A DNA stretch of 53,352 bases from Alphaproteobacteria bacterium (GCA_017520675.1 JAFXFG010000006.1:1-53352); one strand, 5' to 3'. Counted from the first letter of the stretch, positions 26,551 to 44,548 are shown. The notes: a model not told the origin generated them from the sequence alone. Numbers and translations: made by a program.

Positions 26551-26790
26551 AAAAAACCGCAATGGAAATCATTTGCGGTCGGGGAGTTCACAAATCACCT
26601 AAAAGTCTGATTCCGCCAGCCTTCGGGAAACCCTGTTGTATAAACCGACGGCCCCCCGACCTTTTACGGCTGGTGGGGATACAATAAAAGACGCCTCCGC
26701 GTCTTTATTCTTCTGCGGATTCAGCACCGTTTTGCGATGCCGCTTTTAGGAGAGCTTGTGACAGCCCCGAACCAAATTCCCATCTGGTTC
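26551..26790 (-). ncRNA. C4-antisense-like RNA module A (a1b1 leader, cloverleaf 26578-26660, terminator)
   Basis: Closing stem GTCGGGG/CCCCGAC; P2 CCGTCGG/CTGGCGG; P3 AATCA/TGATT with loop CTTTTAGG complementary to upstream CCTAAAAG. TTGTGA is complementary to upstream TCACAA. Confidence 0.7.
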
Positions 26791-26798
26791 TGTTTCAA

Positions 26799-26828
26799 AC
26801 TATATCATATATCCTATTTTTTTGTAAA
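26799..26828 (-). promoter_or_regulatory. Sigma70-type promoter for module A
   Basis: TTTACA-18-TATAGT with a TG extended -10. Confidence 0.6.
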
Positions 26829-26855
26829 TATAAAATTTATCAACACACAAAGAAT

Positions 26856-26887
26856 AAAAAACACCGGCGGGGAAGAATGCCGGTGTT
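26856..26887 (-). terminator. Intrinsic terminator separating modules B and A
   Basis: Minus strand reads AACACCGGC-ATTCTTCCCC-GCCGGTGTT-TTTT. Confidence 0.75.
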
Positions 26888-26944
26888 CTTTTCTGTGTTT
26901 TGGCACAGAAACTGTCTATGTGAAAAAAATCACATTATTTATAG

Positions 26945-27190
26945 AAAAAACCGCCGCAGAAAAAAATGGCTGTCGGGGTGTTAGAAAAAACGTCAACAAT
27001 TCCGTTCCCGTCGGCCTTAGGGGACAACGCCCCCTGTTTTATAACCGACGGCACCCCGACAAAAGGGGTTAAGGGTACAAAAAATAGCGCCTCGCCGCGC
27101 CATCTATGCACGGATTTCCAGTATGATTTTTTCTCATACGGATTGTTGAAAGGCTTTTCTAAGGCCCCGAAAACGCATCCCTGCGAATTC
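26945..27190 (-). ncRNA. C4-antisense-like RNA module B (a1b1 leader, cloverleaf 26972-27060)
   Basis: GTCGGGGTG/CACCCCGAC; CCGTCGGTT/GGCCGACGG; GAACG/CGTTT with loop ATTGTTGA complementary to upstream TCAACAAT. TTTTCTAA is complementary to upstream TTAGAAAA. Confidence 0.7.
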
Positions 27191-27197
27191 AAGTCAA

Positions 27198-27226
27198 ATT
27201 ATAACATATGTTTGTACAGATTTCAA
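27198..27226 (-). promoter_or_regulatory. Sigma70-type promoter for module B
   Basis: TTGAAA-17-TATAAT with a TG extended -10. Confidence 0.75.
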
Positions 27227-27229
27227 GTG

Positions 27230-28258
27230 CTAAAATACTAAGCGCAACCCCGCAGATATAAATGGTGTTCGTGATGTAATCCCCCCTGAAATCCATCCGT
27301 CAACAAATTCGCTGTACTTGTATCTGAACGAAGCAACCACCATATGGTCGGCAAAGTCATTAATATTTTTTTGCCACACACCTGTATCTGAAAACATATA
27401 AGTCATTGAAACACTATATTTTAGCAAATCATAACTAACCCCTGTGCCAACGACAAAGCCATCAGAAACAGGTCCAATTGGATTTTTATCATAAATCACG
27501 CGTGCAGTCGTGCCCCAAATCCAACTGTTATATTGCAGGTTCATCCCCAGTGATGCCTGTGCGCGCCAATCTGCTGTAACCCCTGGGGTATAAACTTCGT
27601 TATCAAAATCGTCAGGATTTTTCATAAAAGACACGCCAACAGAATATGCTGTTTTAACCTTACCGCTTGAATTTTTAATTTTTAAACCGCCATCAATTGC
27701 CCAGTCATAGTTATCTGTTAATCCTGCAACAGATATTCCGTACTGTACACCAGAAACCGGCGCAGACGCGACATTTGCCCGCAAAGAATTACTGCGTCCT
27801 GATGTAAGTGTTGTGTCTGCGATAACAGGGCCATCTGGGATAATCTTTTCGTTGAACAGTGGTCTGTCATTAATGCGCAATCCGCCCACATCTGGCAATC
27901 CTAAGCCCAGTTTTCGTGCGATTGAATCTGTAAAACCAACCTCAATCCTGCCCAAAGATTTTGATTCGACAAACGCAAATGTTTCGCGTGAAAAGTTCCC
28001 TTTATCCAATGCTGCCTGATCCATTGCATACACCAGACCAAATTTATATTCTGTATTTGCGGCATATGTTATTTGTCCGCGCACACGCCAATCCCCGATA
28101 AACAGTGGTGATTCCAAGTCTGGTTCAATCATACCAACTGTACCATATCCGGTCAATTTAACGGAAATATTATTGTAATCAAATTGCAACGCGTGTGCGA
28201 ACTGTGGCAATACAGCACAAACCGCCACATATCCCAGTATTTTAATTGTTCTTTTCAT
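27230..28258 (-). CDS. Outer-membrane porin (alphaproteobacterial type)
   Basis: Signal peptide from MKRTIKIL (28258), FVESKSLGRIEVG strand pattern, C-terminal Phe (GLRLVF). Confidence 0.7.
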   Translation of the reverse strand: MKRTIKILGYVAVCAVLPQFAHALQFDYNNISVKLTGYGTVGMIEPDLESPLFIGDWRVRGQITYAANTEYKFGLVYAMDQAALDKGNFSRETFAFVESKSLGRIEVGFTDSIARKLGLGLPDVGGLRINDRPLFNEKIIPDGPVIADTTLTSGRSNSLRANVASAPVSGVQYGISVAGLTDNYDWAIDGGLKIKNSSGKVKTAYSVGVSFMKNPDDFDNEVYTPGVTADWRAQASLGMNLQYNSWIWGTTARVIYDKNPIGPVSDGFVVGTGVSYDLLKYSVSMTYMFSDTGVWQKNINDFADHMVVASFRYKYSEFVDGWISGGITSRTPFISAGLRLVF

Positions 28259-28259
28259 T

Positions 28260-29174
28260 TTATTTATTTCCATCTGCTTCGCTAAGTATTGCATCGCGTA
28301 GTTTTTTATATGCGCGTTCTTCGATTTGTCTGACGCGTTCGCGTGAAATTCCATATTTTTGCGACAGTGATTCCAGTGTCGCAACGGGCTGTTTCAATTT
28401 GCGTGCGACCAAGATTTCCCTGTCGCGTTCGGACATTTTTGCCAGATTTTTTTTCAGCAATTCGTATCCGCGTTTTCTGAATTCGACCTGTTCCAGTGTT
28501 TCTTCGATTGTATCGCCACCATCTGTCATATTAGACAGAATATCTGATGCGCCGTCATCTGAATTCATTGGTGCGTTCAGTGATAAATCGCGCGCGCCAA
28601 CGCGTGTTGCCATACGTGCGACATCTTTCTCGGGTACTTCCAGATAATTTGCGATTTGCTTTGTTTGTTCATCGCTAAGATTATTATCCATAATCCCCAG
28701 TGCGCGTTTTGCGCGTGCCAGATTAAAGAAAACCTTTTTTTGATTTGCGGATGTTCCGATTCGAACGATTGACCAGTTGTTCAAGATTGTTTCATATATT
28801 TCTGCCTTAATCCAGAACATTGCGTATGTTGAAAATCTGAACCCTTTTTCTGGGTCAAATTTTTGCACCGCCTGCATTAGTCCCATATTTCCGCTGGCAA
28901 TCAAATCAGCAACTGGTATTCCGTAATTTTTATAGTCGTATGCAACCGACACAACCAGACGCAGATGACTGACCACCAGTTTTTCTGCGGCAAACTTATC
29001 CTGATTTTTTACCCATTGTGTTGCGTATTCATATTCCTGTTCTGCCGTCAGTACAGGTATTTTCTGAACGGTTTGTATATATTGTGCCAGTCCACTTTCA
29101 TCACTGACCCCGCGTGCAGCAACAATAGAAGTGTTTTTTAATACTGGTATTGTGTTCTTGATTTCCTTTTTCAT
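28260..29174 (-). CDS. rpoH: RNA polymerase sigma-32 factor
   Basis: SHLRLVV, KFDPEKGFRFSTYA, RpoH box QKKVFFNL, SRERVRQIE. Start MKKEIK at 29174. Confidence 0.9.
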   Translation of the reverse strand: MKKEIKNTIPVLKNTSIVAARGVSDESGLAQYIQTVQKIPVLTAEQEYEYATQWVKNQDKFAAEKLVVSHLRLVVSVAYDYKNYGIPVADLIASGNMGLMQAVQKFDPEKGFRFSTYAMFWIKAEIYETILNNWSIVRIGTSANQKKVFFNLARAKRALGIMDNNLSDEQTKQIANYLEVPEKDVARMATRVGARDLSLNAPMNSDDGASDILSNMTDGGDTIEETLEQVEFRKRGYELLKKNLAKMSERDREILVARKLKQPVATLESLSQKYGISRERVRQIEERAYKKLRDAILSEADGNK

Positions 29175-29228
29175 AACTTTTATAGTATAACATAATTTAA
29201 TAATTATCAAGCCACAGGAGAATTTATT

Positions 29229-29879
29229 ATGGCAACAATCTTAGAAAGAAATAAAAACATCAAAGCCCCCAAGAAAACATACGCAGAACATATGGAAGAT
29301 GCCCTTTATCGCGAGGTATGGGAGGATGTAAACAACGAAAAAACAATGCGCTTTATCAAGAAGTATTCGCGTCATATAATTTATGCGGTAATATTTGTTT
29401 TGTTGGTTGCGTCTGGTATTCAGATTGGTATGCGCACCTATCAGTCAAACAAGATTGCGACTGCGATTGCTTACGAAACAGCCTTGTCAAACATCGATGC
29501 AAATGCACTGGCTGCAATTTCAGAAAATACATCAGGTGCAACTGCGGACTTGGCGTTATTTCAATCTTATTTACTGGACAAGGACGAAAAGAAACTAGAA
29601 AAATTGGCGGAATCTGGCCACAGTCGTGATTATCGTGATTTGGCGCGTATTCATATTGTTGCGTTGCGTGGTGATACAATGTCTGCACCCCAGGTTGCAG
29701 AATATCTGTCAGATTTAACAACCGAAGATTCTCCGTATTATTACAATGCGATGTTGTTGATTGCACAAAAGTATTTGTCTGTTGGCGAACAAGATAACGC
29801 GAACAAATGGCTGGACCAGATTATCAATGACAAATCTGCACCGGCATCTATCGCAGGTGTTGCACAAACATTACGTTAA
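29229..29879 (+). CDS. YfgM-like (TPR_21) membrane-anchored protein
   Basis: LYREVWEDV...FIKKY followed by a TM; precedes a BamB-like gene. Confidence 0.7.
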   Translation: MATILERNKNIKAPKKTYAEHMEDALYREVWEDVNNEKTMRFIKKYSRHIIYAVIFVLLVASGIQIGMRTYQSNKIATAIAYETALSNIDANALAAISENTSGATADLALFQSYLLDKDEKKLEKLAESGHSRDYRDLARIHIVALRGDTMSAPQVAEYLSDLTTEDSPYYYNAMLLIAQKYLSVGEQDNANKWLDQIINDKSAPASIAGVAQTLR

Positions 29880-29896
29880 ATATCTTTGGGGGCACT

Positions 29897-30625
29897 ATGC
29901 GCAAGATTTATTTAGTAATATGCTGTATATTTTTGGTGTCTGCGTGTGATAAGCACGACCCGATTTTGACTGGTGTTCGAACCCCGATATTTGACAGTGG
30001 CAAGATTCGGGTTTTGAACCAGACTATAACAGATGTGCCGACAGGGGTGCATACATATGATAATTCTGCATGCAAATACACCCAAGATTCAAAAAACATA
30101 GTCTGGGACGGCACGCACAAGGTTTTTTCTGGTTTTGCAACGAATAATACAGTATCTGGCATTCGTACACCGATATGCAGTGGCAAATACTTATATGCGG
30201 GCCTATCAACGGGCGAAGTTGTAAAACTAAATCCAAAAAGTCGTTCTGTCTTGTGGATTGCAGACATATATCGTACCAGCAATTTAACCGGTGGTGCATC
30301 GATGGTTGATATTGTTGCGCCGATTGTGCCGTATGGTGATTCGGTTTATGTGGCTGGTCTGGGCGATGCTTTTTGTCGAATAAATGCGACCAGTGGTGCA
30401 AAGCACTGGTGTATTAATTTGTCTGTTGGTGTGCCGTTCATTCTGGCCGGTAATTATGCGTTTGTGGTATCTACAGATGGGAATTTGAATGCGGTTTCCG
30501 TGTCCAAGGGGCAGATTTATTGGCGTGCGCCCGTTTCTGCGCAGGTTGCACCGATTTATTCGGACGGTGTAATAACGGTTGGCAAAGAACGCATAAATGT
30601 TGCTGATGGTAAAAAAATAAAATAA
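29897..30625 (+). CDS. Short BamB-like PQQ beta-propeller lipoprotein
   Basis: Lipobox VSAC, L.G.R motif and PQQ repeats (G..HW, G.IYW). Only 242 aa. Confidence 0.7.
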   Translation: MRKIYLVICCIFLVSACDKHDPILTGVRTPIFDSGKIRVLNQTITDVPTGVHTYDNSACKYTQDSKNIVWDGTHKVFSGFATNNTVSGIRTPICSGKYLYAGLSTGEVVKLNPKSRSVLWIADIYRTSNLTGGASMVDIVAPIVPYGDSVYVAGLGDAFCRINATSGAKHWCINLSVGVPFILAGNYAFVVSTDGNLNAVSVSKGQIYWRAPVSAQVAPIYSDGVITVGKERINVADGKKIK

Positions 30626-30658
30626 AAAAAAGCGCCAATTTGGCGCTTTAAAAATTCG

Positions 30659-30735
30659 TGGTGGGTGTTGAGGGACTCAAACCCCCGACCCTCTCGGTGT
30701 AAACGAGATGCTCTAATCAACTGAGCTAAACACCC
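30659..30735 (-). tRNA. tRNA-Val (anticodon TAC)
   Basis: Reverse complement is GGGTGTTTAGCTCAGTTGATTAGAGCATCTCGTTTACACCGAGAGGGTCGGGGGTTTGAGTCCCTCAACACCCACCA. Confidence 0.93.
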
Positions 30736-30850
30736 GACAAAGCAAGCAAGATAATATAATATATTTTTTTACTTGTCTAGTATTTTTTTTGCGTTTTGTG
30801 TTTTTTTAGTTTAGAATACTTTTTGCAATAACATACAAAGGAGAAAACAT

Positions 30851-31489
30851 ATGAAAAAAATCGTTTCTGTACTTGTTTTAACTGCATTGGTATCGGGTTG
30901 TACAACTGTGAATCCTTACACAGGTCAAACCCAGACTGCAAAGTCCACATGGGGGACTGCGATTGGTGCCACAGCCGGCGCATTATTGGGCAGCACGAAA
31001 AGCAGCGAGGCCGCATTATTGGGTGGTTTGGCTGGCGCGGCCGTTGGTGGCGGTGTTGGTTATTATTTGGATGTTCAGGCGGCTGAGTTGCGTTCTGAAC
31101 TGGTATCGACAGGTGTACAGGTTATCGAATCCGATGATAATATTCGTTTGGTAATGCCTGGCAATATCACATTCAAGACAGATTCTGCGGATATAAATTC
31201 TTCTTTTTATCCTGTGCTAAATTCTGTGGCGCGCGTATTAAAGAAATACGATAATTCAACTGTATTGGTATCTGGTCATACAGACAGCACAGGTTCTGCG
31301 GATTATAATCTAAATCTATCGCGCAATCGTGCTCAGTCTGTTGCGTCTTATTTGCAAGGGCAGGGGATTAAGGCATCACGATTTGAAGTTTTGGGATTGG
31401 GAACATCGAATCCAATTGCATCAAACGAAACTGCGTCTGGACGCGAACAAAATCGTCGTGTAGAGATAAAGATTATTCCAAATAAATAA
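30851..31489 (+). CDS. OmpA-family lipoprotein (YiaD-like)
   Basis: Lipobox VSGC, glycine zipper, GHTDSTG, NRRVEI. Confidence 0.92.
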   Translation: MKKIVSVLVLTALVSGCTTVNPYTGQTQTAKSTWGTAIGATAGALLGSTKSSEAALLGGLAGAAVGGGVGYYLDVQAAELRSELVSTGVQVIESDDNIRLVMPGNITFKTDSADINSSFYPVLNSVARVLKKYDNSTVLVSGHTDSTGSADYNLNLSRNRAQSVASYLQGQGIKASRFEVLGLGTSNPIASNETASGREQNRRVEIKIIPNK

Positions 31490-31573
31490 TAAAAAATCGC
31501 CCATTTGGGCGATTTTTTATTGCAAGTTTAGTATTCTTTTTGTATCTTCAACAGGTGCACAAAAGGAAATAAT

Positions 31574-31768
31574 ATGGAAGAAAATAAATTGACATTTGAA
31601 GAAGCCTACAAGCAATTAATGGAACTGGTAAAAAAGATGGAATCTGGCGAATTGCCATTGGCTGATTCTGTCGCCGCGTACGAGCAGGGAATTAAACTAA
31701 AAGCATATTGCGAACAGTTGCTAAAAGAAGCAGAATTAAAAATAGAAACATTGAAAATAAACGCATAA
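31574..31768 (+). CDS. xseB: Exodeoxyribonuclease VII small subunit
   Basis: FEEA..L..LV..MESGELPL.DS...YEQG..L...C...L..AELKI. Confidence 0.92.
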   Translation: MEENKLTFEEAYKQLMELVKKMESGELPLADSVAAYEQGIKLKAYCEQLLKEAELKIETLKINA

Positions 31769-31801
31769 TTATCACCTGTTAATTTATATTTAGGATTTAT
31801 C

Positions 31802-34333
31802 GTGGCAGAAAAAACAAAACTAACACCTGTTATGCAACAGTATGTTGATATGAAGGCTGAAAACCCAGATGCATTATTAATGTTTCGTCTGGGGGATTTT
31901 TACGAATCGTTTTTTGAAGATGCCAAGACCATAAGTTCTGCATTGGGGTTGGTCTTGACCGCACGCGGAACAGATGGAAATGGTGCGGACATACCAATGT
32001 GTGGTATTCCATGGCATGCATCCGATAATTATTTTGGTCGTCTTGTTCGTGCTGGATACAAGGTCGCATTGGTTGAACAGATGGAAACCCCCGCCCAGGC
32101 CAAGGAACGTGGACATAAATTTATAGACCGTCAGGTTGTGCGTGTTTTGACACCTGGGACATTAACGGATGATAATTTGCTGACCCCAAAGAAGTCAAAT
32201 TTTTTGGTTGCGATATCGCCACTTGGCGGTGGCAATTTTGATGTTGCAGGTTGTGATATATCGACTGGTGAATTTTTTGTTGGTCAAACATCTGATGCGA
32301 TTGATGATTTGACTCGCGTCAATCCGGCTGAGGTTATATTTCCATTTGGCAATGCCGAAGAAAAAACGATTATGAAACTGCGTGAATTATTCAAGGCGAC
32401 CCCGGTATATGAAAAACTGTATCATCGCGCTGATATTGATATGGTTGTGTCGCGTGTCTTTGGTGGCGCGGTTGACAGCAGTACTGTATCGCGTAATTCG
32501 GACAGTGCGATATGTCTGTTGGCGGGGTATTTATTTAATACCCAGCGTGGCAGTTCGATAATATTTCGCGCGCCATACACATTTAAGTCTGGTCGTCAGT
32601 TGTTAATAGATTCTGCCACTTGGAAAAGTCTTGAAATAGACAGTTCCATCAATGATGGTGGTGCGTGCCTGATTGATGTCCTGGACGAAACAATAACATC
32701 GGCTGGTGCGCGAAAGTTGCGTGCATATTTGCGCAACTTGTCGTCAGATTTATCAGAAATCACATTGCGTCAAAGTCATATATCACACTTTTCATTAAAT
32801 CCAGATGTTCTGGCGCTGATGCGTGATGTTTTGTCGTCTATTCCTGATGTTGGTCGTTCTTTATCGCGTTTATTATCTGGTCGTGGCGCGCCGCGTGATA
32901 TGCGCAATGTTTCAGATTTTATTGCTGCATTACCGCGTGCGCAATTATTGTCATCACGCCTAGATTCTGATTTATCTGCGCGCTTTGCGGGAATTGATAC
33001 ACACAGCGCATTCGGCGTAAAGTTGCGTAATGCATTGTCTGATGATTTGCCGACATTTTTTCGCGATGGTAATGTGATACGCGATGGTTTTGATGTTGCG
33101 CTGGATAATATGCGCGGGCTGTCCAGTGGTGGTCGCGAAACGATTGCAGGCTTGCAGGCTGAATACATTGCGCAAACTGGTATAAATACACTAAAGATAA
33201 AATACAATAATATTCTTGGTTATTTTATAGAGGTTCCCTCATCGCGTGCAGAAACGATGATGCAACCGGAATCTGGGTTTATACACCGTCAAACGATGGC
33301 TGGCAATATGCGCTTTACAACATCGCGCCTGATTGATTTAGACAATGATGTTCGCAGTGCTGCGGAAAAATCCGCCGCGATAGAGGCGCAAATAATATCT
33401 GATTTTATCGAAGAAATTCGCGCAATATCAGACGATTTGTTGTCCAGTGCAGATTTATTAGCAGACGCAGATGTCTGGGCATCATTGTCGATTGTTGCAG
33501 ACCGTTATAATTGGGTATGTCCAACAATTACTGACGATTGTGCGTTTGACATTGTTGGTGGTCGTCATCCTGTGATTGAATATGTTCTGCGTTCGCGCGG
33601 GGATAATTTCATCAAAAACGATTGTAATCTAAATGAATCTGCGATTGCGTTATTAACAGGGCCAAATATGGCGGGTAAGTCAACATATCTGCGTCAAAAT
33701 GCAATAATCATAGTACTTGCGCATTTGGGATCGTTTGTACCTGCAACATCAGCGCGTATTGGTATTTGCGACCAGTTGTTTAGTCGTGTTGGTGCGTCTG
33801 ATAATTTGGCGGCAGGTCAATCGACTTTTATGGTTGAAATGGCAGAAACCGCAAATATTTTAAATCGTGCAACCAATCGGTCCTTTATAATCTTTGACGA
33901 GATTGGTCGTGGCACAGCGACTTATGATGGTATGGCGATTGCACAGGCGGTATTAGAATACCTGAATCAATTACAGCCACGCACATTGTTTGCAACGCAT
34001 TATCACGAATTGACATCATTGGTTACAAGTGGCGAATTAAATCATGTGCATTGTCTGACCATCGATGTGCGCGAGCATAATGATGAGATTATCTTTATGC
34101 ATAGAATTATTTCTGGTGTTGCCAATCGTTCATATGGGATTCATGTTGCGCGTATGGCGGGTATGCCAGCATCGGTTGTTGCGCGTGCAGAATGTGTATT
34201 AAATGCCTTGGAATCGCATCAATTACCAACCCCTGCACCTGATTGCGCACCAAAACCAACACCACAAGCATCCAAAGTAAATAAAAATTGCGTATCTGAT
34301 GAAAATCCAAAACCGCAATTAAGTTTATTTTAA
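31802..34333 (+). CDS. mutS: DNA mismatch repair protein MutS
   Basis: TPVMQQY, GDFYE, GPNMAGKST, DEIGRGT and a C-terminal clamp-binding QLSLF. Confidence 0.96.
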   Translation: MAEKTKLTPVMQQYVDMKAENPDALLMFRLGDFYESFFEDAKTISSALGLVLTARGTDGNGADIPMCGIPWHASDNYFGRLVRAGYKVALVEQMETPAQAKERGHKFIDRQVVRVLTPGTLTDDNLLTPKKSNFLVAISPLGGGNFDVAGCDISTGEFFVGQTSDAIDDLTRVNPAEVIFPFGNAEEKTIMKLRELFKATPVYEKLYHRADIDMVVSRVFGGAVDSSTVSRNSDSAICLLAGYLFNTQRGSSIIFRAPYTFKSGRQLLIDSATWKSLEIDSSINDGGACLIDVLDETITSAGARKLRAYLRNLSSDLSEITLRQSHISHFSLNPDVLALMRDVLSSIPDVGRSLSRLLSGRGAPRDMRNVSDFIAALPRAQLLSSRLDSDLSARFAGIDTHSAFGVKLRNALSDDLPTFFRDGNVIRDGFDVALDNMRGLSSGGRETIAGLQAEYIAQTGINTLKIKYNNILGYFIEVPSSRAETMMQPESGFIHRQTMAGNMRFTTSRLIDLDNDVRSAAEKSAAIEAQIISDFIEEIRAISDDLLSSADLLADADVWASLSIVADRYNWVCPTITDDCAFDIVGGRHPVIEYVLRSRGDNFIKNDCNLNESAIALLTGPNMAGKSTYLRQNAIIIVLAHLGSFVPATSARIGICDQLFSRVGASDNLAAGQSTFMVEMAETANILNRATNRSFIIFDEIGRGTATYDGMAIAQAVLEYLNQLQPRTLFATHYHELTSLVTSGELNHVHCLTIDVREHNDEIIFMHRIISGVANRSYGIHVARMAGMPASVVARAECVLNALESHQLPTPAPDCAPKPTPQASKVNKNCVSDENPKPQLSLF

Positions 34334-34353
34334 AAAAGGATTAAGGGATAAAA

Positions 34354-35963: not shown

Positions 35964-35988
35964 AAAAATCCCCGTTTGGGGATTTTTT
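35962..35988. terminator. Bidirectional intrinsic terminator
   Basis: AAAAAATCCCC-GTTT-GGGGATTTTTT. Similar hairpins occur near 19461, 31491 and 47641. Confidence 0.85.
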
Positions 35989-37734: not shown

Positions 37735-37794
37735 GAAAAAACCTCCTAAGATACAGGTAGATTATATCATATTTTTTACTGTGAAGCAAAATAT

Positions 37795-38673
37795 TTAATC
37801 TTCGCCAAAGTCCATATCTCGCAATTTTTCTGCGCGTGGCGCGATTTTTGCGATTGATGTTTGCAGTTGTTCAATATCGTTTTGTGCCTGTCCAAAGTGT
37901 CGCGCGACATTTCCTGCGCGGTCAGACAGTCTGGCCAAATCAGTCAACAGATAATCCAGTTCTTTTTTTATCTGTGTTGCGACGCGTTTAATTTTTATAT
38001 CAGACAGCACTGCGCGAATCGTATTTAGTGTTGCCCACAGTGTTGCAGGCGAAACGATAAAGACTTTTTGTTTTGCAGCATATTCAATTGTGTTTGGAAA
38101 TTCGCGGTGCAGTGTTTCAAAGATAGATTCAGATGCAATAAACATCATTGCTGATTCTGCGGTCTGACCTGTGATTATATATTTTTCACCAATTGCATCG
38201 ATGTGTTTTCGCACATCCAGTTCGAATTGTTTTCGTGCCATAGCATCGTTTTGGTCAGTTATCATTTTGTTATAACTTTCCAGCGGAAATTTACTGTCTA
38301 TTATCATATCGCCTGGTGGGTATGGCAACCTGATGATACAGTCTGGTCGTACACCTGTATCCATTACATGCTGAAAGGCATATGTTTCTGGTGGCATAAT
38401 ATCCATAACAATATCTTCCAGTTGTCTTTCGCCAAAAGTACCGCGTGCCTGTTTATTTCCCATTAAAATATTTTTAAAGTTTGCAATATCACTGCTGATA
38501 TTTTTAAGTTCGATTGCATTCTGGCTAAGTGCCCCCAGTCGTTCTGCCAATCTTTCACGCAGTCTGGCATTGTCTTCACGCAGTGGCGAAATGTCCAGTG
38601 TTGGCTTTCGCATCAGCAATGCAAGCAATAAAACAATAATTATTCCTAACAATACAAAAATATAAGTTGTCAT
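37795..38673 (-). CDS. rmuC: DNA recombination protein RmuC
   Basis: RGTFGE.QL, RPDC.I.LP, IDSKFPL, KHI..I.EKYI, VSPATL. Confidence 0.92.
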   Translation of the reverse strand: MTTYIFVLLGIIIVLLLALLMRKPTLDISPLREDNARLRERLAERLGALSQNAIELKNISSDIANFKNILMGNKQARGTFGERQLEDIVMDIMPPETYAFQHVMDTGVRPDCIIRLPYPPGDMIIDSKFPLESYNKMITDQNDAMARKQFELDVRKHIDAIGEKYIITGQTAESAMMFIASESIFETLHREFPNTIEYAAKQKVFIVSPATLWATLNTIRAVLSDIKIKRVATQIKKELDYLLTDLARLSDRAGNVARHFGQAQNDIEQLQTSIAKIAPRAEKLRDMDFGED

Positions 38674-38717
38674 TTCCTAATCCTTTGCTATTATTGCAAT
38701 TATAAAAGGTTTTAAAT

Positions 38718-39218
38718 ATGTTGCAAATGAAACTTTGTGGTGATGTTGTTCTAAGGACTGTATGTGCGCCCGTATCTGACATAGATGGTGCATTATTATC
38801 GACCTTGGATGAAATGGTTGAAATGATGCGTGCCCAGAATGGTGTTGGTCTTGCTGCACCCCAGGTTGGCATACTATCGCGTTTTTTGGTTATGATGGAC
38901 CCAGATTCTGAGGTTGTATATCGTATGATAAATCCAAAAATTTTATCATACAGTGATGAACTTTGCACGATGGAGGAGGGATGCTTGTCTGTACTGGGCA
39001 ATGACAATCTGCCGATATTTGCAAATGTATCGCGTCCACAGTCTGTGATTGTTGAATGGACTGACGAAAATGGCGACAAAAAGACTGCCCAGATGTCTGG
39101 CACACCTGCCCGAATTGTTCAGCATGAAACGGACCATCTGGATGGCAAGTTGTTTATTGATTATCTATCGCCTGTGCGTCGTGAAATGGTAACCAGAAAA
39201 ATAAAAAAGCGTAAATAG
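38718..39218 (+). CDS. def: Peptide deformylase
   Basis: GVGLAAPQVG, EGCLS, QHETDHLDG. Confidence 0.96.
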   Translation: MLQMKLCGDVVLRTVCAPVSDIDGALLSTLDEMVEMMRAQNGVGLAAPQVGILSRFLVMMDPDSEVVYRMINPKILSYSDELCTMEEGCLSVLGNDNLPIFANVSRPQSVIVEWTDENGDKKTAQMSGTPARIVQHETDHLDGKLFIDYLSPVRREMVTRKIKKRK

Positions 39219-39220
39219 AA

Positions 39221-40030
39221 ATGAAACTTGTATTAATGGGAACAAATTCCTTTGTTGTTCCAATTTTCGAAGCAATAAGAAATGCAGGTCATGAAATAAT
39301 GGCTGTTTTTACGCGTGCGCCAAAACTGGTTGGTCGCAAACAAATTCTAACACCTTCACCTGTGCATATCTGGGCGAATGAAAATAATTTACCTGTGCAC
39401 ACAAATGTTTCTGAATATAATTATTCGCCTGATATGGTGGTTGTTATTTCTTATGGTGTGATACTGCGCGATAATGTTTTGGGGTCTGCGCCTTGTATAA
39501 ATCTGCACCCCAGTTTATTGCCAAAGTATCGTGGGCCATCACCAATTAGAACTGCGCTATACAACGGTGATAAACAGTCTGCGGTATGTTTAATGCGTGT
39601 TGTTCCAGAATTGGACGCAGGTGATATTTTAATGTGTCGCGAATTCGATATTGATATTAACGATACGAATGACAGTATTGAACATCTGGTTTCAAGTATT
39701 GGTTCTGAAATGTTGGTTGAATATTTATCGTCCCCCGACAAATATTCTGCAACCCCACAAAGTGGCGATGCGACATTCACCCATAAATGGACCAGTACTG
39801 ATATGAATATTGATTGGTCGCGCAATCCAATTGACATACATAATCAGATTCGTGCGTTGGGGGCAGGTCGCACCAAGATAAATGGCACAGATGTAAAAAT
39901 CTTGGAAACCAGGGTTAATAACAATGGCGAACTAGAAATTATAAGTCTGCAACCATCGGGTAAAAAACCAATGGATTGGAAAAGTTTTTTAAATGGTCTG
40001 CGTGGTGCAGAAATAAAATATGGGGAATAA
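39221..40030 (+). CDS. fmt: Methionyl-tRNA formyltransferase
   Basis: NLHPSLLPKYRG and LDAGDI; follows def. Confidence 0.93.
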   Translation: MKLVLMGTNSFVVPIFEAIRNAGHEIMAVFTRAPKLVGRKQILTPSPVHIWANENNLPVHTNVSEYNYSPDMVVVISYGVILRDNVLGSAPCINLHPSLLPKYRGPSPIRTALYNGDKQSAVCLMRVVPELDAGDILMCREFDIDINDTNDSIEHLVSSIGSEMLVEYLSSPDKYSATPQSGDATFTHKWTSTDMNIDWSRNPIDIHNQIRALGAGRTKINGTDVKILETRVNNNGELEIISLQPSGKKPMDWKSFLNGLRGAEIKYGE

Positions 40031-40032
40031 AA

Positions 40033-40200
40033 ATGAAACAAAAATGTAAATATTGCGAATATTACTACTTGCACAAGAATCAGCAATCATTGTGTTATTA
40101 TGGTGATGAAGTTAATATATTTATGTTTGGTCCCAAGCGCACAAGTCCCAATGACTTTTGTAAAAATTTCAAGGCGCGCCAACTACAAAACACAAAGTAA
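40033..40200 (+). CDS. Small Cys-rich hypothetical protein (55 aa)
   Basis: MKQKCKYC...C...FCKNF...QNTK*, preceded by GGGGA. Confidence 0.6.
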   Translation: MKQKCKYCEYYYLHKNQQSLCYYGDEVNIFMFGPKRTSPNDFCKNFKARQLQNTK

Positions 40201-40217
40201 TATAAAAAGGAAAAATA

Positions 40218-40445
40218 ATGGCAATCAGATTTTGTAAAAACAGAAAATGTGAAATAGTTTTAAATGAATATAATGCAGATTGTTCATGTGTCTTTTGTGA
40301 TAAAGAGGTCAAGAATTGTACTGTTATAAATTGTCCTGACAAAGGTGCAATGCATGTATCAGAGGCGCATCGTGAATTACAATCACGCAAATGTCATGGT
40401 TGTATGCAGTTTTCACGTTACTTACTATCGCAACGTAACAGATAA
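40218..40445 (+). CDS. Small Cys-rich hypothetical protein (75 aa)
   Basis: AAGGA RBS; CxCxxC...C...CxxC; ends QRNR*. Confidence 0.65.
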   Translation: MAIRFCKNRKCEIVLNEYNADCSCVFCDKEVKNCTVINCPDKGAMHVSEAHRELQSRKCHGCMQFSRYLLSQRNR

Positions 40446-40454
40446 AGAATAAAA

Positions 40455-40685
40455 ATGTCACAGATAATCAAGAATAGTACATTATGTGGTTTATGGGGGG
40501 TTGACGTTAATATGTCAGAGCACAATCGTTTTGGCAAATGCGAATGTGTCGGGTGTATTGGCAGTAACTGTAAGAATTGCGTAATATACCATGAATTGTA
40601 TACAGAAAGCGCAAATTCAACTTTTAACAAGCAGGTGTCGCGGTGCAAAAAATGTCGAACAGCAGAATTTACAAAACAAAGATAA
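40455..40685 (+). CDS. Small Cys-rich hypothetical protein (76 aa), probable paralog of 40218-40445
   Basis: CECVGC...KNC...CKKC; ends TKQR*. Confidence 0.65.
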   Translation: MSQIIKNSTLCGLWGVDVNMSEHNRFGKCECVGCIGSNCKNCVIYHELYTESANSTFNKQVSRCKKCRTAEFTKQR

Positions 40686-40689
40686 AAAT

Positions 40690-41421
40690 ATGACACGATA
40701 CAAAGTAATCTTGGAATATGACGGTACAGATTTAATTGGCTGGCAGGAAAATCGCCAAGGTCCATCTGTACAATCACTGGTCAAAGACGCAATTGAACAG
40801 TTTTGTGGTGCGCGTCCTGATATTGTTGGGGCGGGGCGCACAGATTCTGGGGTTCATGCAGTTGCGATGACCGCGCACTTTGATATTGATGGCGACCATT
40901 CCCCCGAAACCGTTATGCGGGCATTAAATTTTTATTTAACGAATAAGCCTGTATCGGTTCTGGGGTGCAGTGTTGTTCCTGATGAATTTAATGCGCGTTT
41001 TGATTGTATTGCTCGTCATTACAAGTATGTCGTATTAAATCGCAGTGCTGCACCTGTATTACAAAAAAATCGTGTATATTGGGTTCCGCGAAAACTGGAC
41101 GTTGACGCAATGCGTGCTGCGACAGAAAAATTGATTGGCAATCACGATTTCACCAGTTTTCGTGCATCAGAATGTCAGGCCAAATCCCCGATAAAGACAC
41201 TGGATAAAATAGACATAACCACAGACGGCGATTTAATAATATTTGAATTTTCTGCGCGTTCATTTTTACATCATATGGTGCGCAATATTGTTGGAACACT
41301 GATTGAAATTGGTCTGGGCAAGCCTTATGATATAGATGAAATTTTTGCGGCCCGCAATCGCAGTGCCGCCGGTCCAACTGCACCAGCAAGTGGTCTATAT
41401 TTTATTCGCGCTGATTATTAA
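40690..41421 (+). CDS. truA: tRNA pseudouridine(38-40) synthase
   Basis: EYDGT..GWQ, AGRTDSGVHA, FLHHMVRNIVG. Start MTRYK at 40690. Confidence 0.95.
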   Translation: MTRYKVILEYDGTDLIGWQENRQGPSVQSLVKDAIEQFCGARPDIVGAGRTDSGVHAVAMTAHFDIDGDHSPETVMRALNFYLTNKPVSVLGCSVVPDEFNARFDCIARHYKYVVLNRSAAPVLQKNRVYWVPRKLDVDAMRAATEKLIGNHDFTSFRASECQAKSPIKTLDKIDITTDGDLIIFEFSARSFLHHMVRNIVGTLIEIGLGKPYDIDEIFAARNRSAAGPTAPASGLYFIRADY

Positions 41422-43337
41422 TTCCACCTGCGATTTGTTTGTGTGTATTTTATTTTGTTGTTTGGATAAATTACAAACCCACCGCTTAGTATTTTATGCT
41501 GACATCTTGGCGCATTAATTTTCAAATAAGACACAATAAATTTGACAGAATCATCTGCGCATAGTTTTTCAATATTTTTCATCAGTGGAACAAACTTTTG
41601 AATATAAACAATATTCCCTTGCCTGAAAATACCTTCTGAATGTGCTTTTCGTTTATTTTTTGAATTTGTATCTTCGCCATTTACTTGTTTCCATGTATCA
41701 AATGCGAACTTATGTGCACTGGCGCGTGCTTTATTAAATACCAGTGTTCCATCATTATTCAAGAACGCGACTAATTCATTATCGTGTGTTGCATAGAATA
41801 CAGGTTTTGGACTAAGACAAACAGTTATTATTCCAGAAATTATAAACACAACAAACAAGATATAATTAAATTTTATTTTTATCGGTTTAATAAAGACCAA
41901 CGCCACAAACGCCAAGACAAACAGCATCAATGCAATATTTGAAATATGTGGCATTGTCATATTTGCGCAGGGCAATTCAGAGATATTCTGTGCGACTTGA
42001 ATCAGCCAGTTATAAATATCGTGCGCCCATATTATTGGCGAATGTATATTGAACAATGAACAGATTACACCGATAAAAACCAGTGGCATAATCGCGACAG
42101 AAAACACAGGCAACAAAATTAGATTCCCTAACAAACTATAAATTGGTATCGCACCAAAATGCGCAGCAACAAATGGCGCAGTAAATATCGTCGCAACCAC
42201 AGAAGTTAAGATGCACGCATAAACAATTTTTAAAAACTTATTGTGTGGCATTTTAGGCTTTACATCTTGGTACAGCCAGACTAAACCAAAGACCGCAGAA
42301 AACGAAAGTTGAAATCCGGCTTGCATAACACTGTGCGGATTGATTAAGAAAATAATACAGAATGCCAATGCAACATTTCGCATAGAAATCGCGTTGCGCC
42401 CAAATACCAGCGCGCCAAACACTAAACTGGTCATCAAAAATGCGCGCAATGTTGCGATATCAATTCCGGATAAGAATAAATAAAACAACAACCCAAACCA
42501 TGCGCAAATTGTCGCGGGAATCCTTGCAGGTATTCGTTTGGTTATTGGTGGAATTGTGCGAAAAATAAAATACATAATTATAAACAGCCATCCGCCAACC
42601 AAAGTCATATGAAAACCGCTGATTGACCACACATGCCCAATACCAGTTGCTGTCCATATTTCATTATCATCATCTGGCACAGCGGATTTGTATCCCAACA
42701 CCAAACTATCCACCAGAAAAGAATTTGACTTTTTATGTAATGTATCACGCAGCGAATTTATTCCATTGTTATATTTTGATTCTATTATTGTTAAATTGTT
42801 TATATATCCTGTGGCGGTGATATTATTAAAATAAGCCCACTGTGCATAGTCAAAAGTCTCGGGCGCATACGCAGAATTTGGTTTGAATACACCGGCATCA
42901 ACACTAACTTTATCACCAATATTGGGTAAATTGGTTTCGTTTTTGATTGACAATCTCAGGTTTGCTGTGCCGTCGCCTGCATTAATATCATTTGCATTTA
43001 CGGTTAAAACAATTCTTGCCTTGTCGCTGGTATAGTCAATAGATTTTACGACACCGCTCAGACTAAGGTTATGCATACTACGTGAAATTTTTGGTATATT
43101 TATAAAATTAGTAAAACAGCACGCATAACAGAACCCAAAAATCACCATACAAAACGCGCGTATCAATATTGGGCATTTTCTACACAGTAAAATCGCGCCA
43201 CTTAAAATTGCAAAAACAGCAGTATATATAAATTCAGGTTCAGTACTTGCGGTAAAATATAGTACTGCCCCACCGGCCAATAACAAAGGCACATACAGGA
43301 ACAGGTTTTGATACTGATTATCCAGCCAATCTTTCAT
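41418..43337 (-). CDS. comEC: ComEC/Rec2 competence protein
   Basis: FDY..W, GIGHVWSISGFHM, RAFLM, GFQLSF. Start MKDWL at 43337. Confidence 0.9.
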   Translation of the reverse strand: MKDWLDNQYQNLFLYVPLLLAGGAVLYFTASTEPEFIYTAVFAILSGAILLCRKCPILIRAFCMVIFGFCYACCFTNFINIPKISRSMHNLSLSGVVKSIDYTSDKARIVLTVNANDINAGDGTANLRLSIKNETNLPNIGDKVSVDAGVFKPNSAYAPETFDYAQWAYFNNITATGYINNLTIIESKYNNGINSLRDTLHKKSNSFLVDSLVLGYKSAVPDDDNEIWTATGIGHVWSISGFHMTLVGGWLFIIMYFIFRTIPPITKRIPARIPATICAWFGLLFYLFLSGIDIATLRAFLMTSLVFGALVFGRNAISMRNVALAFCIIFLINPHSVMQAGFQLSFSAVFGLVWLYQDVKPKMPHNKFLKIVYACILTSVVATIFTAPFVAAHFGAIPIYSLLGNLILLPVFSVAIMPLVFIGVICSLFNIHSPIIWAHDIYNWLIQVAQNISELPCANMTMPHISNIALMLFVLAFVALVFIKPIKIKFNYILFVVFIISGIITVCLSPKPVFYATHDNELVAFLNNDGTLVFNKARASAHKFAFDTWKQVNGEDTNSKNKRKAHSEGIFRQGNIVYIQKFVPLMKNIEKLCADDSVKFIVSYLKINAPRCQHKILSGGFVIYPNNKIKYTQTNRRWN

Positions 43338-43400
43338 AAAAAAATTATAGGCACGAAATCCCCGCCCCTGCAATAAAAAACTTTTTTTAGAAACAAAAAA

Positions 43401-43595
43401 TGATATAATTCCTTTTGACAACAGTAAGTGTTGTTGGGTGTGGAAACCCAAATTCTAGGTTGTGCTGGTATTTACCGGCACAAAAAAACTCCAATGCGCA
43501 AGTTGGAGGGCATTTGAATATATCGAATAGAATGCACTATTTTCCTAGAATAATAGTTTCCAACCTCCAACCACCTGTTGTTCAGGTGTTTTTTT
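43401..43595 (+). ncRNA. C4-antisense-like RNA module C (extended -10, a1b1, cloverleaf 43502-43571, terminator 43572-43595)
   Basis: TGaTATAAT; GTTGGAGG/CCTCCAAC; GCATT/AATGC; ACTATT/AATAGT with loop CCTAGAAT complementary to ATTCTAGG (43452-43459). GTTTCCA is complementary to TGGAAAC (43441-43447). Ends CACCTG-TTGTT-CAGGTG-T7. Confidence 0.68.
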
Positions 43596-43609
43596 GTATA
43601 GGAGAGATT

Positions 43610-44548
43610 ATGAGAAAAATAATATCGCTATTGTCACTTATGGTTGTTATTCCTGCATATTCGAATGAAGTGTTGTCATTGGATGATGCGTTGCGTGCGA
43701 CATATACTGCCTGTGTTGGCATTGATGATGCCTTGTACGATTTAAAAAAGATGGCTGGGATTAATACAGCGATAACTGCAGTTGGTACGGCTGCTGGCGC
43801 GGGCGCAACAGTTGTTGGCGTTGTGAAAAGTGGTAAAGATGCCAAGGCAGAGGCACTAGAGGCGATATTAAAAGAAATTGCAGAAATGTCCAAAAATCAA
43901 TCGGAAATGACCGAAACAGAAATTGCTACATTTATGTCTGAATTTAATTCTGCATACGAAACTGTACTAAAGAGTAAACAAGAAGCGGAAACAGAATTGC
44001 AAAAAACGGTTCAGCAATCCAAGAAACTGGGTAATTGGCGCACTGGATTGATGGCAACTGGCGCGGCAACAAATCTGGCTGGTGCAATTATTGCCGGCAC
44101 GAACAAGGTGGATGGTGATTTAGACGCACAAATAACCGCATGCAAGAACTCGCTATCTGCATTAAGAACGTCGATTATGCAGGCGCGTATAAATGGCGAA
44201 GACGTTACTGAGGCTCAAACAATCGAATCCACCTGCAGTGAATTTGAATATATTGATTTATCCAAGATTAATACGCGTGGCAAAGGCGCAATGATTTCAT
44301 CTGGGGTTGGTGCGGCAACTGGTCTGGTTGGTACATTTACGTCTGCATCCGCCAACAGTCAGAAGGTTCGTGATGACAACAGCGATTCGGGTAAACAGAA
44401 AGAAAAGAACCTAAATACTGCATCAAATGTCTTGGCGGGCGCATCGGCTGCTGCATCTGCCACTGCTACGGTATTTAACGCAACCCAGATATCTGCGATT
44501 AAGAAAGTTGCCGAAGTTGCGTCAAAATGTACGGGGGTATTGAAATGA
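43610..44548 (+). CDS. Secreted protein with Gly/Ala-rich hydrophobic helices (paralog of 36829-37734)
   Basis: AGGAGA RBS before the ATG at 43610, signal peptide, DLKKMAGINTA and ATVFNATQISAIK. Confidence 0.78.
   Translation: MRKIISLLSLMVVIPAYSNEVLSLDDALRATYTACVGIDDALYDLKKMAGINTAITAVGTAAGAGATVVGVVKSGKDAKAEALEAILKEIAEMSKNQSEMTETEIATFMSEFNSAYETVLKSKQEAETELQKTVQQSKKLGNWRTGLMATGAATNLAGAIIAGTNKVDGDLDAQITACKNSLSALRTSIMQARINGEDVTEAQTIESTCSEFEYIDLSKINTRGKGAMISSGVGAATGLVGTFTSASANSQKVRDDNSDSGKQKEKNLNTASNVLAGASAAASATATVFNATQISAIKKVAEVASKCTGVLK

Follow-up and report, generated by a model that had tools for sequence, protein, structure and literature searches.

The three C4-like modules in the analysed window, a 53,352-nt stretch of an alphaproteobacterial genome, belong to a family of about forty phage-C4-like RNA leaders in this tiny gut bacterium, each carrying its own private pairing code and placed in front of an accessory gene, usually for an exported protein. 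Models built here detected at least 41 copies in the genome, 23 of a long type (model R1, 60 bits or more) and 18 of a short type (model R3). Beyond this genome, the family was found in 139 of 150 other sampled genomes of the order and in 20 of 149 other alphaproteobacterial families. The modules are best read, by inference, as self-targeting, privately coded antisense leaders or attenuators on portable gene cassettes.

Anatomy of the modules and their codes

The earlier note had described modules A, B and C with matching a/b boxes that differ between modules, and this observation was confirmed, both for the boxes and for their coordinates (Table 1). Its count of three, however, was a large underestimate. 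The exact a..b and b'..a' patterns of each module occur only inside that module in the whole genome of 1,108,911 bases. The layout seen in all three comprises a promoter, a 5' hairpin, GGG(G), a1 in a small hairpin, b1, one or more hairpins, a core with b' in the P3 loop and a' between P3 and P1, and a terminator. Throughout the family an anti-P1 element precedes the three-helix core and a gene follows 10-45 nt behind the module, mostly with a signal peptide, although module B is an orphan.

Table 1. Coordinates and supporting evidence for modules A, B and C, their genes and the cassette
Coordinates	Strand	Feature	Details	Support
26799..26828	-	Module A promoter	-35 TTTACA 26828-26823; 18-nt spacer; -10 TATAGT 26804-26799	sequence inspection; promoter comparison
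26743..26790	-	Module A leader, 5' part	5' hairpin 26790-26769; GGGG 26768-26765; a1 TCACAA 26761-26756 in a small hairpin; b1 CCTAAAAG 26750-26743	folding; genome-wide pattern search; long-range covariation
26668..26740	-	Module A middle part	hairpin 26740-26724; terminator-like hairpin 26703-26690 with U run 26689-26686; C-rich anti-P1 26678-26668	folding; isrK model 20.4 bits over 26684-26740
26578..26660	-	Module A core	P1 5' strand from 26660; P2; P3 with b' loop CTTTTAGG 26605-26598; a' TTGTGA 26593-26588; P1 3' strand 26586-26578	R1 104.4 bits; sRNA-Xcc1 25.0 bits; covariation
26551..26578	-	Module A intrinsic terminator	stem arms 26578-26573 and 26562-26557; U run 26556-26551	covariation
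25573..26526	-	Cargo gene of A	317 aa, glycine-rich, no evident signal peptide; a second orphan ORF follows at 24600-25568	ALK_LTK_GRD E 2e-4, below cut-off; Atlas 0.93 to viral Gly_rich_2 clusters (a lead only)
26941..27226	-	Module B	-35 27226-27221; -10 27203-27198; 5' hairpin about 27190-27169; GGGG 27168-27165; a1 27162-27155; b1 27149-27142; two hairpins; anti-P1 27070-27065; core 27060-26972 (b' 27000-26993, a' 26988-26981); weak terminator to about 26944; no gene follows	R1 91.3 bits; sRNA-Xcc1 35.0 bits; folding; genome-wide pattern search
26856..26886	-	Extra hairpin with U run between B and the promoter of A		read by eye; weak terminator-type matches only
43404..43596	+	Module C (short type)	-10 TATAAT 43404-43409; 5' hairpin 43417-43435; GGG 43436-43438; a1 43441-43447; b1 43452-43459; hairpin 43460-43483; anti-P1 CTCCAAT 43489-43495; core 43502-43571 (b' 43544-43551, a' 43556-43562); terminator 43572-43596	R3 56.4 bits (model built without C); c4-a1b1 14.0 bits; folding; ortholog in genome G019 keeps the same boxes
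43610..44548	+	Cargo gene of C	312 aa, N-terminal signal-peptide-like sequence; a 1033-aa orphan ORF follows at 44527-47628	
24589..27230	.	Cassette (B, A and two genes)	present here, absent in close relatives	comparison with relatives; a contig of run X6 joins 24573 to 27231

Near-consensus promoters were found in 19 of 25 anchored copies, with a -35/-10 match of at least 9 of 12 and the -10 ending 26-28 nt before the GGGG. An SD-preceded ORF begins within about 41 nt of the model match in 26 of 35 copies, and 23 of those 26 look like signal peptides. The product of the gene behind module A, in contrast, has no evident signal peptide and resembles viral glycine-rich proteins, which is only a lead.

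Covariation supports the core and the long-range pairing

We next studied whether the predicted structure is supported by compensatory change. On 60 cores from 4 families of the order, 95.6% of cells were paired and 27 of 29 pairs showed compensatory change, whereas slid controls gave 36-46% paired and 10-14 pairs. The terminator pairs covary as well. Paralogs are not independent, which inflates the covariation counts, and alignment A5 was fitted to the model's structure. On a plain MAFFT alignment of 17 modules, the long-range GGGG:CCCC, a1:a' and b1:b' pairs were 86.9% paired, against 31-55% when slid, and 12 of 18 pairs were compensatory.

The match between the boxes of a module is far beyond chance. 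The b'/a' segment of a copy pairs best with its own upstream region in 23 of 34 usable copies and ranks in the top 4 in 31 of 34. The longest exact complementary word averages 7.83 nt for a copy's own leader, against 4.54 nt for the leaders of other copies. By our recount, an exact b1 complement of 6-9 nt lies at the expected place in 21 of 21 copies and an exact a1 of at least 6 nt in 15 of 21. No own-copy excess was seen in the 400 nt downstream across 35 copies (6.54 against 6.43 nt), and no second exact a+b site exists in the genome for A, B or C. Thus, no a2/b2-type target over the ribosome-binding site of the downstream gene was found.

When the full leaders of 21 copies were folded, the predicted minimum-energy fold was the self-paired one, lying about 4-19 kcal/mol below the best fold with P1 forced. 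The anti-P1 changes together with P1 across subtypes and families, as read by eye. The terminator hairpin is kept in both predicted folds, so that we could not show how the choice of fold would change expression of the cargo gene.

The boxes diversify faster than the scaffold

All 35 tabulated copies have distinct codes. In five near-identical copies, 10 of the 12 variable core columns lie in b'/a', and in 14 long-type copies the boxes differ at 0.557 per site and the scaffold at 0.166 per site, i.e. about three times less.

These data bear on a cis-only alternative, in which the a1b1:b'a' helix is just a long-range helix of a structured 5' UTR that stabilises or insulates the mRNA, nothing acts in trans, and the codes differ only because a helix needs pairing, not sequence. 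In line with this, the self-paired fold is the predicted minimum-energy fold, there is no second target anywhere in the genome, and the orthologous module C in G019 keeps its code unchanged. On the other hand, the boxes change about 3.4 times faster than other paired positions (0.557 against 0.157) and than unpaired scaffold positions (0.188), and near-identical copies differ almost only in b'/a'. This looks like selection for different codes, which a cis-only helix does not need. Moreover, b' and a1 are displayed in hairpin loops, as in kissing antisense RNAs, and the orphan module B has no mRNA to stabilise. A cis-only leader remains possible, but we consider it the less likely reading.

Genomic context and cassette nature

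The modules are chromosomal, not prophage-borne. Pfam searches of 10 neighbouring genes in the window, which are housekeeping or orphan, and of 9 other cargo proteins revealed no icd/ant genes or prophage context, and a search of the genome for the ANT domain gave 0 hits. The segment carrying B, A and two genes behaves as a cassette: the closest relative (L069) has 18 nt at this site, while another close relative (L070) has one different module plus gene. Homologs of the cargo gene of C in six other genomes have their own promoter and no module, as read by eye, so the leader is dispensable for expression.

The multi-copy nature, the presence or absence of the cassette at one site that holds different cassettes in different strains, and the frequent location of copies at contig ends would also fit a DNA-level element, such as a MITE-like repeat or a recombination site that moves or shuffles the cassettes, with the inverted repeats acting as DNA. 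This seems very unlikely. The 'terminal' inverted repeats are the most variable part while the interior is conserved, the reverse of a MITE. G-U pairs are frequent, so the structure works only on one strand. Promoter and terminator are in fixed orientation to the gene, and no target-site duplication was seen by eye at the cassette junction.

A further possibility, raised in the earlier note, is a library of trans-acting immunity RNAs, in which each core blocks an antirepressor-type gene of an incoming phage or mobile element carrying the matching a/b site, as C4 does for P1 and P7. P1/P7 heteroimmunity rests on such codes (PMC5320573, citing Citron and Schuster), the codes are diverse, and an orphan module exists. 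However, every copy carries its own matching a1/b1, the only complement of each code in the genome is in the module's own leader, and copies are tied to cargo genes in one orientation. The core pattern is absent from viral contigs, and module A has no blastn match in 50,697 phage records. The viral contigs were searched for the core pattern rather than for the a+b pairs, for which, with 14 specified bases, chance hits were estimated in the thousands. Together with the lack of an ANT domain, these results gave no support to the immunity reading, which appears improbable.

Relationship to known C4-like RNAs

Similarity to Rfam models had been set beforehand as a test of the interpretation, and no C4-clan model reached its threshold. 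The C4 antisense RNA model (RF01695, cut-off 45 bits) gave 0 matches at E<=10 in the whole genome, whereas phage P1 scored 68.8 bits as a positive control. The c4-a1b1 model (RF03163, cut-off 46.7 bits) matched only C, with no match to A or B at E<=10, and gave 51 bits for P1. The nearest model was sRNA-Xcc1 (RF02221, cut-off 53 bits), with 19 hits in the genome at E<=10 and a best score of 48.3 bits. The isrK match to A (RF01394) was likewise below its cut-off of 50 bits. Conversely, our model does not find P1 C4. Homology to C4 therefore rests on architecture alone.

In that respect the order of parts matches that of the P1/P7 immI leader, as annotated in phage P1. From one promoter follow a 5' hairpin, a1 in a small hairpin loop, b1, a hairpin with a U run, and a three-helix RNA with b' in a hairpin loop and a' just before the closing stem. 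The core topology, a closing stem around two hairpins with b' in the second hairpin loop and a' single-stranded before the closing stem, matches the C4 consensus, and specificity lies in two short boxes. Different from P1/P7 are the lack of an a2/b2 site and of icd/ant genes, the intrinsic terminator behind the core, P2 as a long hairpin with an inner hairpin, and the about 40 copies per genome in front of exported-protein genes.

sRNA-Xcc1 of Xanthomonas integron cassettes and APSE phages has the same fold topology and also lies upstream of a gene in mobile cassettes, symE in integrons and an ORF6N protein in APSE (10.1101/2025.06.18.660453; 10.1101/2020.03.17.996009), but the cargo genes differ and the copy number is far higher here. 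A multi-copy chromosomal C4-like family is already reported in Acinetobacter baumannii. Its 'Group 1' sRNAs are highly expressed, appear to be processed from longer transcripts and vary in the specificity loop (PMC5320573). Those RNAs match the Rfam C4 motif, unlike the present ones, and come from a different class of bacteria; in the text consulted we found no mention of a self-complementary a1/b1 leader, a private code per copy or a link to exported-protein cassettes.

IsrK of the Salmonella prophage Gifsy-1 exists as a terminated short RNA and a read-through mRNA from one promoter, and the short form acts in trans on the long form through alternative folds (PMC4825925). The isrK model weakly matches the a1b1-to-hairpin part of A and of P1 (35.1 bits), yet IsrK is a single copy that controls an antirepressor in a prophage. 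P4 CI is a processed leader RNA whose box pairs with complementary boxes in transcripts from the same promoter, one of them upstream of the RNA, and causes premature termination; P4 also has a downstream box and is a single-copy satellite phage system. By description, the Bartonella Brt RNAs upstream of Trp (XRE) genes are an alphaproteobacterial multi-copy family (9 copies) of about 200-nt, highly transcribed RNAs that terminate just before a gene, with little read-through (PMC5387305; a/b boxes are not mentioned in the text consulted). In one genome of the order studied here (G036) the modules also precede HTH genes.

A proposed self-targeting leader model

Altogether, the interpretation given in the earlier note was partly supported: the P1-like order of parts, the chromosomal location, the within-module codes and the position directly in front of genes held, whereas similarity to Rfam C4 models and the immunity branch did not find support, and the gating of surface genes remains an inference.

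In the reading that we favour, though with only moderate confidence, the modules are members of a large alphaproteobacterial family of promoter-to-terminator RNA leaders, built like the leader of the P1 immunity operon, and each is its own transcription unit. Most transcripts should stop at the intrinsic terminator behind the core and give a roughly 250-nt RNA, while read-through would carry on into the cargo gene. The RNA would target itself, GGGG+a1+b1 in the leader pairing with b'+a'+CCCC in the core and the C/U-rich anti-P1 with the 5' strand of P1, and this self-paired fold would exclude the cloverleaf fold. C4 and CI are RNase P substrates (PMC5499578). By analogy, we infer that the core is released as a stable small RNA, that this RNA kisses a1/b1 on new transcripts from its own locus, and that this sets how much RNA is processed or terminated and how much reads through, giving autoregulation. 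The anatomy, copy number, covariation, private and fast-evolving codes, lack of a downstream target, cassette nature and taxonomic range rest on the present analysis. Processing, action in trans and the effect on the cargo gene are inferred, as are the transcripts, their ends and read-through, since the contigs of the only RNA-library run cover little of the stretch.

A more speculative and rather unlikely extension, not excluded by the data, is that each cassette is an RNA-only, locus-specific bistable switch. The released cloverleaf RNA would kiss a1/b1 on nascent transcripts of its own promoter and steer them from the self-paired into the cloverleaf fold, which would make more free RNA, a positive feedback, with the two folds differing in read-through or mRNA fate. 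Dozens of surface proteins would then switch on and off independently, as in phase variation, without any DNA change, and the roughly 40 private codes would be a natural set of orthogonal RNA-RNA pairs on one scaffold.

In the favoured self-targeting model, the private a/b code of each copy would keep about 40 cassettes in one cell from cross-talking.

Validation of the three modules and comparison with known RNA families

All three modules A, B and C described in the earlier note were present with the described layout and boxes, as verified by reading the strands and by an exact search of the whole assembly (1,108,911 bases, 46 contigs, the window being contig C3). Each exact a+b pair occurred only in its own module in this genome. 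The interpretation offered in the note, a host-domesticated family of C4-like RNA switches that either gates surface or effector genes or serves as a library of immunity RNAs against phages, was only partly supported, as detailed below. Single-sequence folds gave the 5' hairpin, the small a1 hairpin, the middle hairpins and, for B and C, the three-helix core. An alignment of the three modules was not used because MAFFT misaligned C with A and B. A brute-force scan for bipartite inverted repeats yielded 2516 raw hits and was too noisy to be used, but it revealed a palindromic unit (CCCCTTCGC..GCGAAGGGG) on another contig, recurring at a spacing of about 73 nt, which may be a repeat array. The coordinates of the features are compiled in the table.

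Table. Coordinates of the modules, flanking features and additional loci (window positions unless a contig or locus is named; the contigs named C4, C5 and those under the cargo families belong to the genome studied here)
Feature	Coordinates	Strand	Remark
Module A, a1 and b1	26761-26743		a1 TCACAA, b1 CCTAAAAG
Module A, b' and a'	26605-26588
Module B, a1 and b1	27162-27142
Module B, b' and a'	27000-26981
Module C, a1 and b1	43441-43459
Module C, b' and a'	43544-43562
Gene behind module A	25573-26526	-
B, A and two genes	24589-27230		insertion or deletion relative to the closest relative found
Same site in the closest relative found	L069:4980-4999		empty; window 27231-32215 and 24588-22709 are 18 nt apart
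Same site in another relative	L070:4969-5400		one module plus gene
Two listed, overlapping ORFs near the sigma-factor gene	27230-28384 and 28260-29210	- and -
Start of a 16S rRNA gene, tRNA-Val (tac) and tRNA-Glu (ctc)	53033-53352, 30659-30735, 4294-4368		16S start at the window's end
Three short-type modules in tandem	contig C5:14174-14753		model hits at 14174, 14413 and 14658
Palindromic unit	contig C4:13490-13841
Examples of the two cargo families	L022:269-1786, L010:640-2031, L016:1851-2093
Copy without terminator in another alphaproteobacterial family	L156 (genome G249, C1:534787-534897)

At the gathering scores of Rfam, only the 16S start and the two tRNAs were detected in the window. 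With permissive thresholds, the core of B matched sRNA-Xcc1 at 35.0 bits and the core of A at 25.0 bits (cut-off 53), part of A matched isrK at 20.4 bits (cut-off 50), and the 5' part of C matched c4-a1b1 at 14.0 bits (cut-off 46.7). Genome-wide, sRNA-Xcc1 gave 19 sub-threshold matches, the best at 48.3 bits, whereas the C4 model gave none at E<=10. Curated models would therefore not annotate these RNAs.

The modules belong to a large family

A model of the core plus terminator (R1), built from an alignment of 17 copies (A3), found 36 matches at E<=1 in this genome, of which 23 were of the 'long type' with 60-115 bits. A second model (R3, from alignment A6) was built from 10 'short-type' copies without module C and found 18 short-type copies, including C at 56.4 bits (E 2.4e-8) and the tandem of three on contig C5, which is much like the B-A tandem in the window. 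R3 also cross-hit 7 long-type copies at 30-36 bits. Altogether, at least 41 copies were found in 1.11 Mb instead of the three first noticed, and since several lie at contig ends the count may be low.

To examine the structure, sixty cores from four families of the order were aligned to R1 (alignment A5). In this alignment 95.6% of cells pair and 27 of 29 pairs show changes on both sides, while only 36-46% pair and 10-14 pairs show such changes when the 3' partners are slid by 1-3 columns. Although fitting to the model favours the structure, RNAalifold had already given P1, P2 and the terminator on the plain MAFFT alignment A3. G-U pairs are common, so the structure belongs to the strand given.

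Each leader is complementary to its own core

In 21 copies inspected, an exact complement of the P3 loop (b1, 6-9 nt) was found in 21 of 21, about 90 nt (long type) or about 45 nt (short type) upstream of the core. An exact a1 of at least 6 nt was present in 15 of 21, and the rest pair with G-U. On the MAFFT alignment of 17 whole modules (A2), 86.9% of the GGGG:CCCC, a1:a' and b1:b' pairs were paired, against 31-55% when slid, and 12 of 18 pairs were compensatory, including all 8 b pairs. This holds although five rows are out of register in the b helix. Duplex energies ranked the own leader first in 23 of 34 copies and within the top 4 in 31 of 34; one of the 35 copies (C28) was left out because its segment could not be extracted. 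The own-copy complementarity upstream was 7.83 nt against 4.54 nt, whereas in the 400 nt downstream no own-copy excess was observed (6.54 against 6.43 nt). So there is no a2/b2 site.

All 35 tabulated copies differ in the 25-nt b'..a' segment by at least 2 nt; an ungapped Hamming comparison of the first 45 core bases was invalid because of indels and was disregarded. Single boxes recur between copies, but their combinations do not. Five almost identical short-type copies have 12 variable columns among 92 core columns, and ten of the 12 lie in the b' loop and a' (Fisher's test, p = 2.5e-8, with our delimitation of about 15 box columns). In 14 long-type copies the boxes differ at 0.557 per site, against 0.157 for paired and 0.188 for unpaired scaffold positions. 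The ortholog of C in genome G019 (78% identity over 1 kb) keeps all four boxes.

Predicted transcription units and cargo genes

Nineteen of the 25 copies found by our anchor have a predicted promoter with a -35/-10 match of at least 9 of 12, often with a TG-extended -10, which ends 26-28 nt before the GGGG and thus just ahead of the 5' hairpin. A G+C-rich hairpin with a U run follows P1, and its pairs covary. Contigs of the single RNA-library run examined, with a small share, gave no evidence on transcription either way. With a strict rule, an SD-preceded ORF starts within about 41 nt in 26 of 35 copies, and 23 of those 26 look like signal peptides. The misses include two contig ends, the orphan B, and C as well as the copies C25:16317 and C25:240, whose ORFs with hydrophobic N-termini were seen on inspection. 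A DNA repeat appears very unlikely as an explanation, since it is contradicted by the variable arms, the G-U pairs and the fixed orientation.

Two paralogous N-termini with conserved signal-peptide character dominate the cargo, '...SRGFLDEAL..ATTTALDLKA' (at least 11 copies) and 'MHKKLL..IPSTEYVQQQIASQI' (at least 10 copies), whereas the C-terminal parts are variable. Pfam has no family for them, and the Atlas gave nothing for the 'SRGFLDEAL' family (best 0.81, pLDDT of the Atlas model 0.50). Pfam and PHROGs left almost all cargo proteins unnamed, with the exceptions of a PLD-like nuclease and DUF4268. According to the earlier note, A and C lead into genes for adhesin-like or secreted proteins; the cargo of A has no evident signal peptide and resembles viral glycine-rich-domain (Gly_rich_2) clusters in the Atlas (0.93, a lead only), and Pfam gave only a sub-threshold ALK_LTK_GRD hit.

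Cassettes rather than prophages

The segment with B, A and two genes lies in an intergenic site between the stop of a 384-aa ORF and the end of rlmN. This site is empty in the closest relative found, and in another relative it holds one module with another code plus a gene of the 'SRGF..DEA' family. In addition, a contig of sequencing run X6 joins 24573 to 27231. The site looks like a hot spot for cassette gain and loss, with no recombinase nearby. The 80 loci around the sigma-factor gene in relatives gave only 4 model hits, and only one (L070) has a module at this site. The 384-aa ORF is an orphan directly downstream of the RpoH-like sigma-factor gene and is conserved at this place in relatives; the overlap of the two ORFs listed there probably results from listing the 384-aa ORF from a TTG start that is too early. 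Homologs of the cargo gene of C in six other genomes of the genus (L160-L165) have their own promoter but no module, as read by eye, so the leader is an optional add-on.

The genome contains six tyrosine-recombinase hits, none of them near the modules of the window, and no ANT domain. The long-type core pattern was absent from the viral contig collection (0 contigs), and module A had no blastn match among 50,697 phage records; for the a+b pairs themselves, with 14 specified bases, chance matches in viral contigs were estimated in the thousands. A phage-immunity library, the second alternative of the earlier note, seems unlikely, as it lacks any target in this genome or in the searches with the core pattern and module A, and ignores the self-complement and the gene linkage.

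Taxonomic range

R1 gave matches in 35 of 41 relatives (the genome studied here included) and in all 24 of the genus, with 1-49 matches each. A further model, R2, built from A5, matched 139 of 150 other genomes of the order (at most 25 matches scored per genome). With one genome per family, R2 matched 20 of 149 other alphaproteobacterial families, or 19 of 148 without one unpublished genome (G202), on which no other claim rests. In the phylum, 7 of 150 other genomes matched, 6 of them in the same class. Six loci from other families show the whole layout again, with matching b1 boxes of 8-10 nt, and lipoprotein, signal-peptide or outer-membrane-like ORFs follow 14-25 nt later in most of them. 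In one copy without a terminator (L156), the core runs straight into a ribosome-binding site and an ORF for a membrane protein. In one family of the order (loci L042, L056 and L059 of genome G036) the modules precede small helix-turn-helix (XRE-like) genes, which recalls the Brt RNA and Trp gene pairs of Bartonella. The genus Candidatus Enterousia, named for near relatives, is placed in order Rs-D84 and described as having reduced genomes without biosynthetic pathways (PMC12306168).

Comparison with phage P1

The annotated record of phage P1 lists P1c4, a1, b1, c4 (77 nt), a2, b2 and icd in that order. On that stretch, Rfam gave c4-a1b1 at 51 bits, isrK at 35 bits, spanning the 5' hairpin, the a1 hairpin and a hairpin with a U run, and C4 at 68.8 bits. 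The order of parts is therefore the same as here up to the end of the core, after which phage P1 has a2/b2 and icd, while these modules have a terminator and a cargo gene. R1 did not detect the C4 of phage P1. The likeness is thus one of design, and common descent is not shown.

Two predicted folds and inferred mechanism

When whole leaders were folded, the minimum-energy structure was a self-paired fold, in which GGGG+a1+b1 pair with b'+a'+CCCC (the 3' strand of stem P1) and a C/U-rich stretch 4-10 nt before the core (anti-P1) pairs with the 5' strand of P1. In the 21 copies folded, this fold lies about 4-19 kcal/mol below the best fold with P1 forced. For several copies the forced a/b constraint fell on wrong occurrences and gave meaningless energies of about -40 kcal/mol, so that only the unconstrained minimum-energy fold counts for these, and in two copies P1 was not located by the script. 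An automated search for P1 in relatives likewise mis-set several segments, and only means were considered there. The anti-P1 changes with P1 across subtypes and families: CCCUGAC with GUCGGGG, CUCCUGAC with GUCAGGAG, CUCCAAC with GUUGGAG, and 13-nt versions in two other families. This rests on reading the sequences by eye, since a 7-mer score allowing G-U pairs was too permissive (419 of 730 control pairs between different copies also scored 7 of 7). With P1 closed, a/b pairing in cis would be a pseudoknot, whereas with P1 open it is nested. A cis-only structural leader fits the folding, but it does not fit the concentration of change in the boxes or the loop display, and we consider it possible but doubtful.

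While the sequence analyses establish the layout, the copy number, the covariation and the private codes, the mode of action is inferred from precedents: C4 and CI are RNase P products (PMC5499578, PMC5320573), and IsrK has short and long isoforms (PMC4825925). In this view, the RNA would toggle between a self-masked precursor and a cloverleaf that is released and acts on a1/b1 of new transcripts from its own locus, and this would tune processing, termination or read-through. The terminator persists in both predicted folds, so the link to cargo expression, on which the gating of surface genes proposed in the earlier note depends, is the weakest step.

A multi-copy, processed, chromosomal C4-like family with variable loops has been described for A. 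baumannii (PMC5320573). What is new here are the self-complementary private codes with no downstream target, the terminator in place of a2/b2, the anti-P1 and the two-fold design, the link to portable cassettes of exported-protein genes, as judged from signal-peptide-like N-termini, the density of about one copy per 27 kb and the spread through an order of gut Alphaproteobacteria. Literature searches on c4-a1b1, sRNA-Xcc1, IsrK, Brt, C4, CI and RNase P, on Enterousia (RNA does not occur in the text of PMC12306168 that was consulted) and on C4 antisense RNA in Alphaproteobacteria (no paper) found no description of this family, although they did not extend to supplements such as Additional File 1 of PMC2864571, which describes the c4-a1b1 motif and could bear on the role of a1/b1.

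As a likeness of design, these data show the phage C4/a1b1 arrangement taken over on a very large scale by cellular genomes, in most sampled genomes of an order of gut bacteria with reduced genomes and scattered through the Alphaproteobacteria. The family offers a function to test for the a1/b1 sites, which the phage P1 record itself still labels 'putative', and gives a natural collection of many mutually distinct pairing codes on one RNA scaffold, useful for studying and engineering RNA-RNA specificity. It also ties an RNA device to the variable exported-protein repertoire of bacteria that probably depend on partner organisms.
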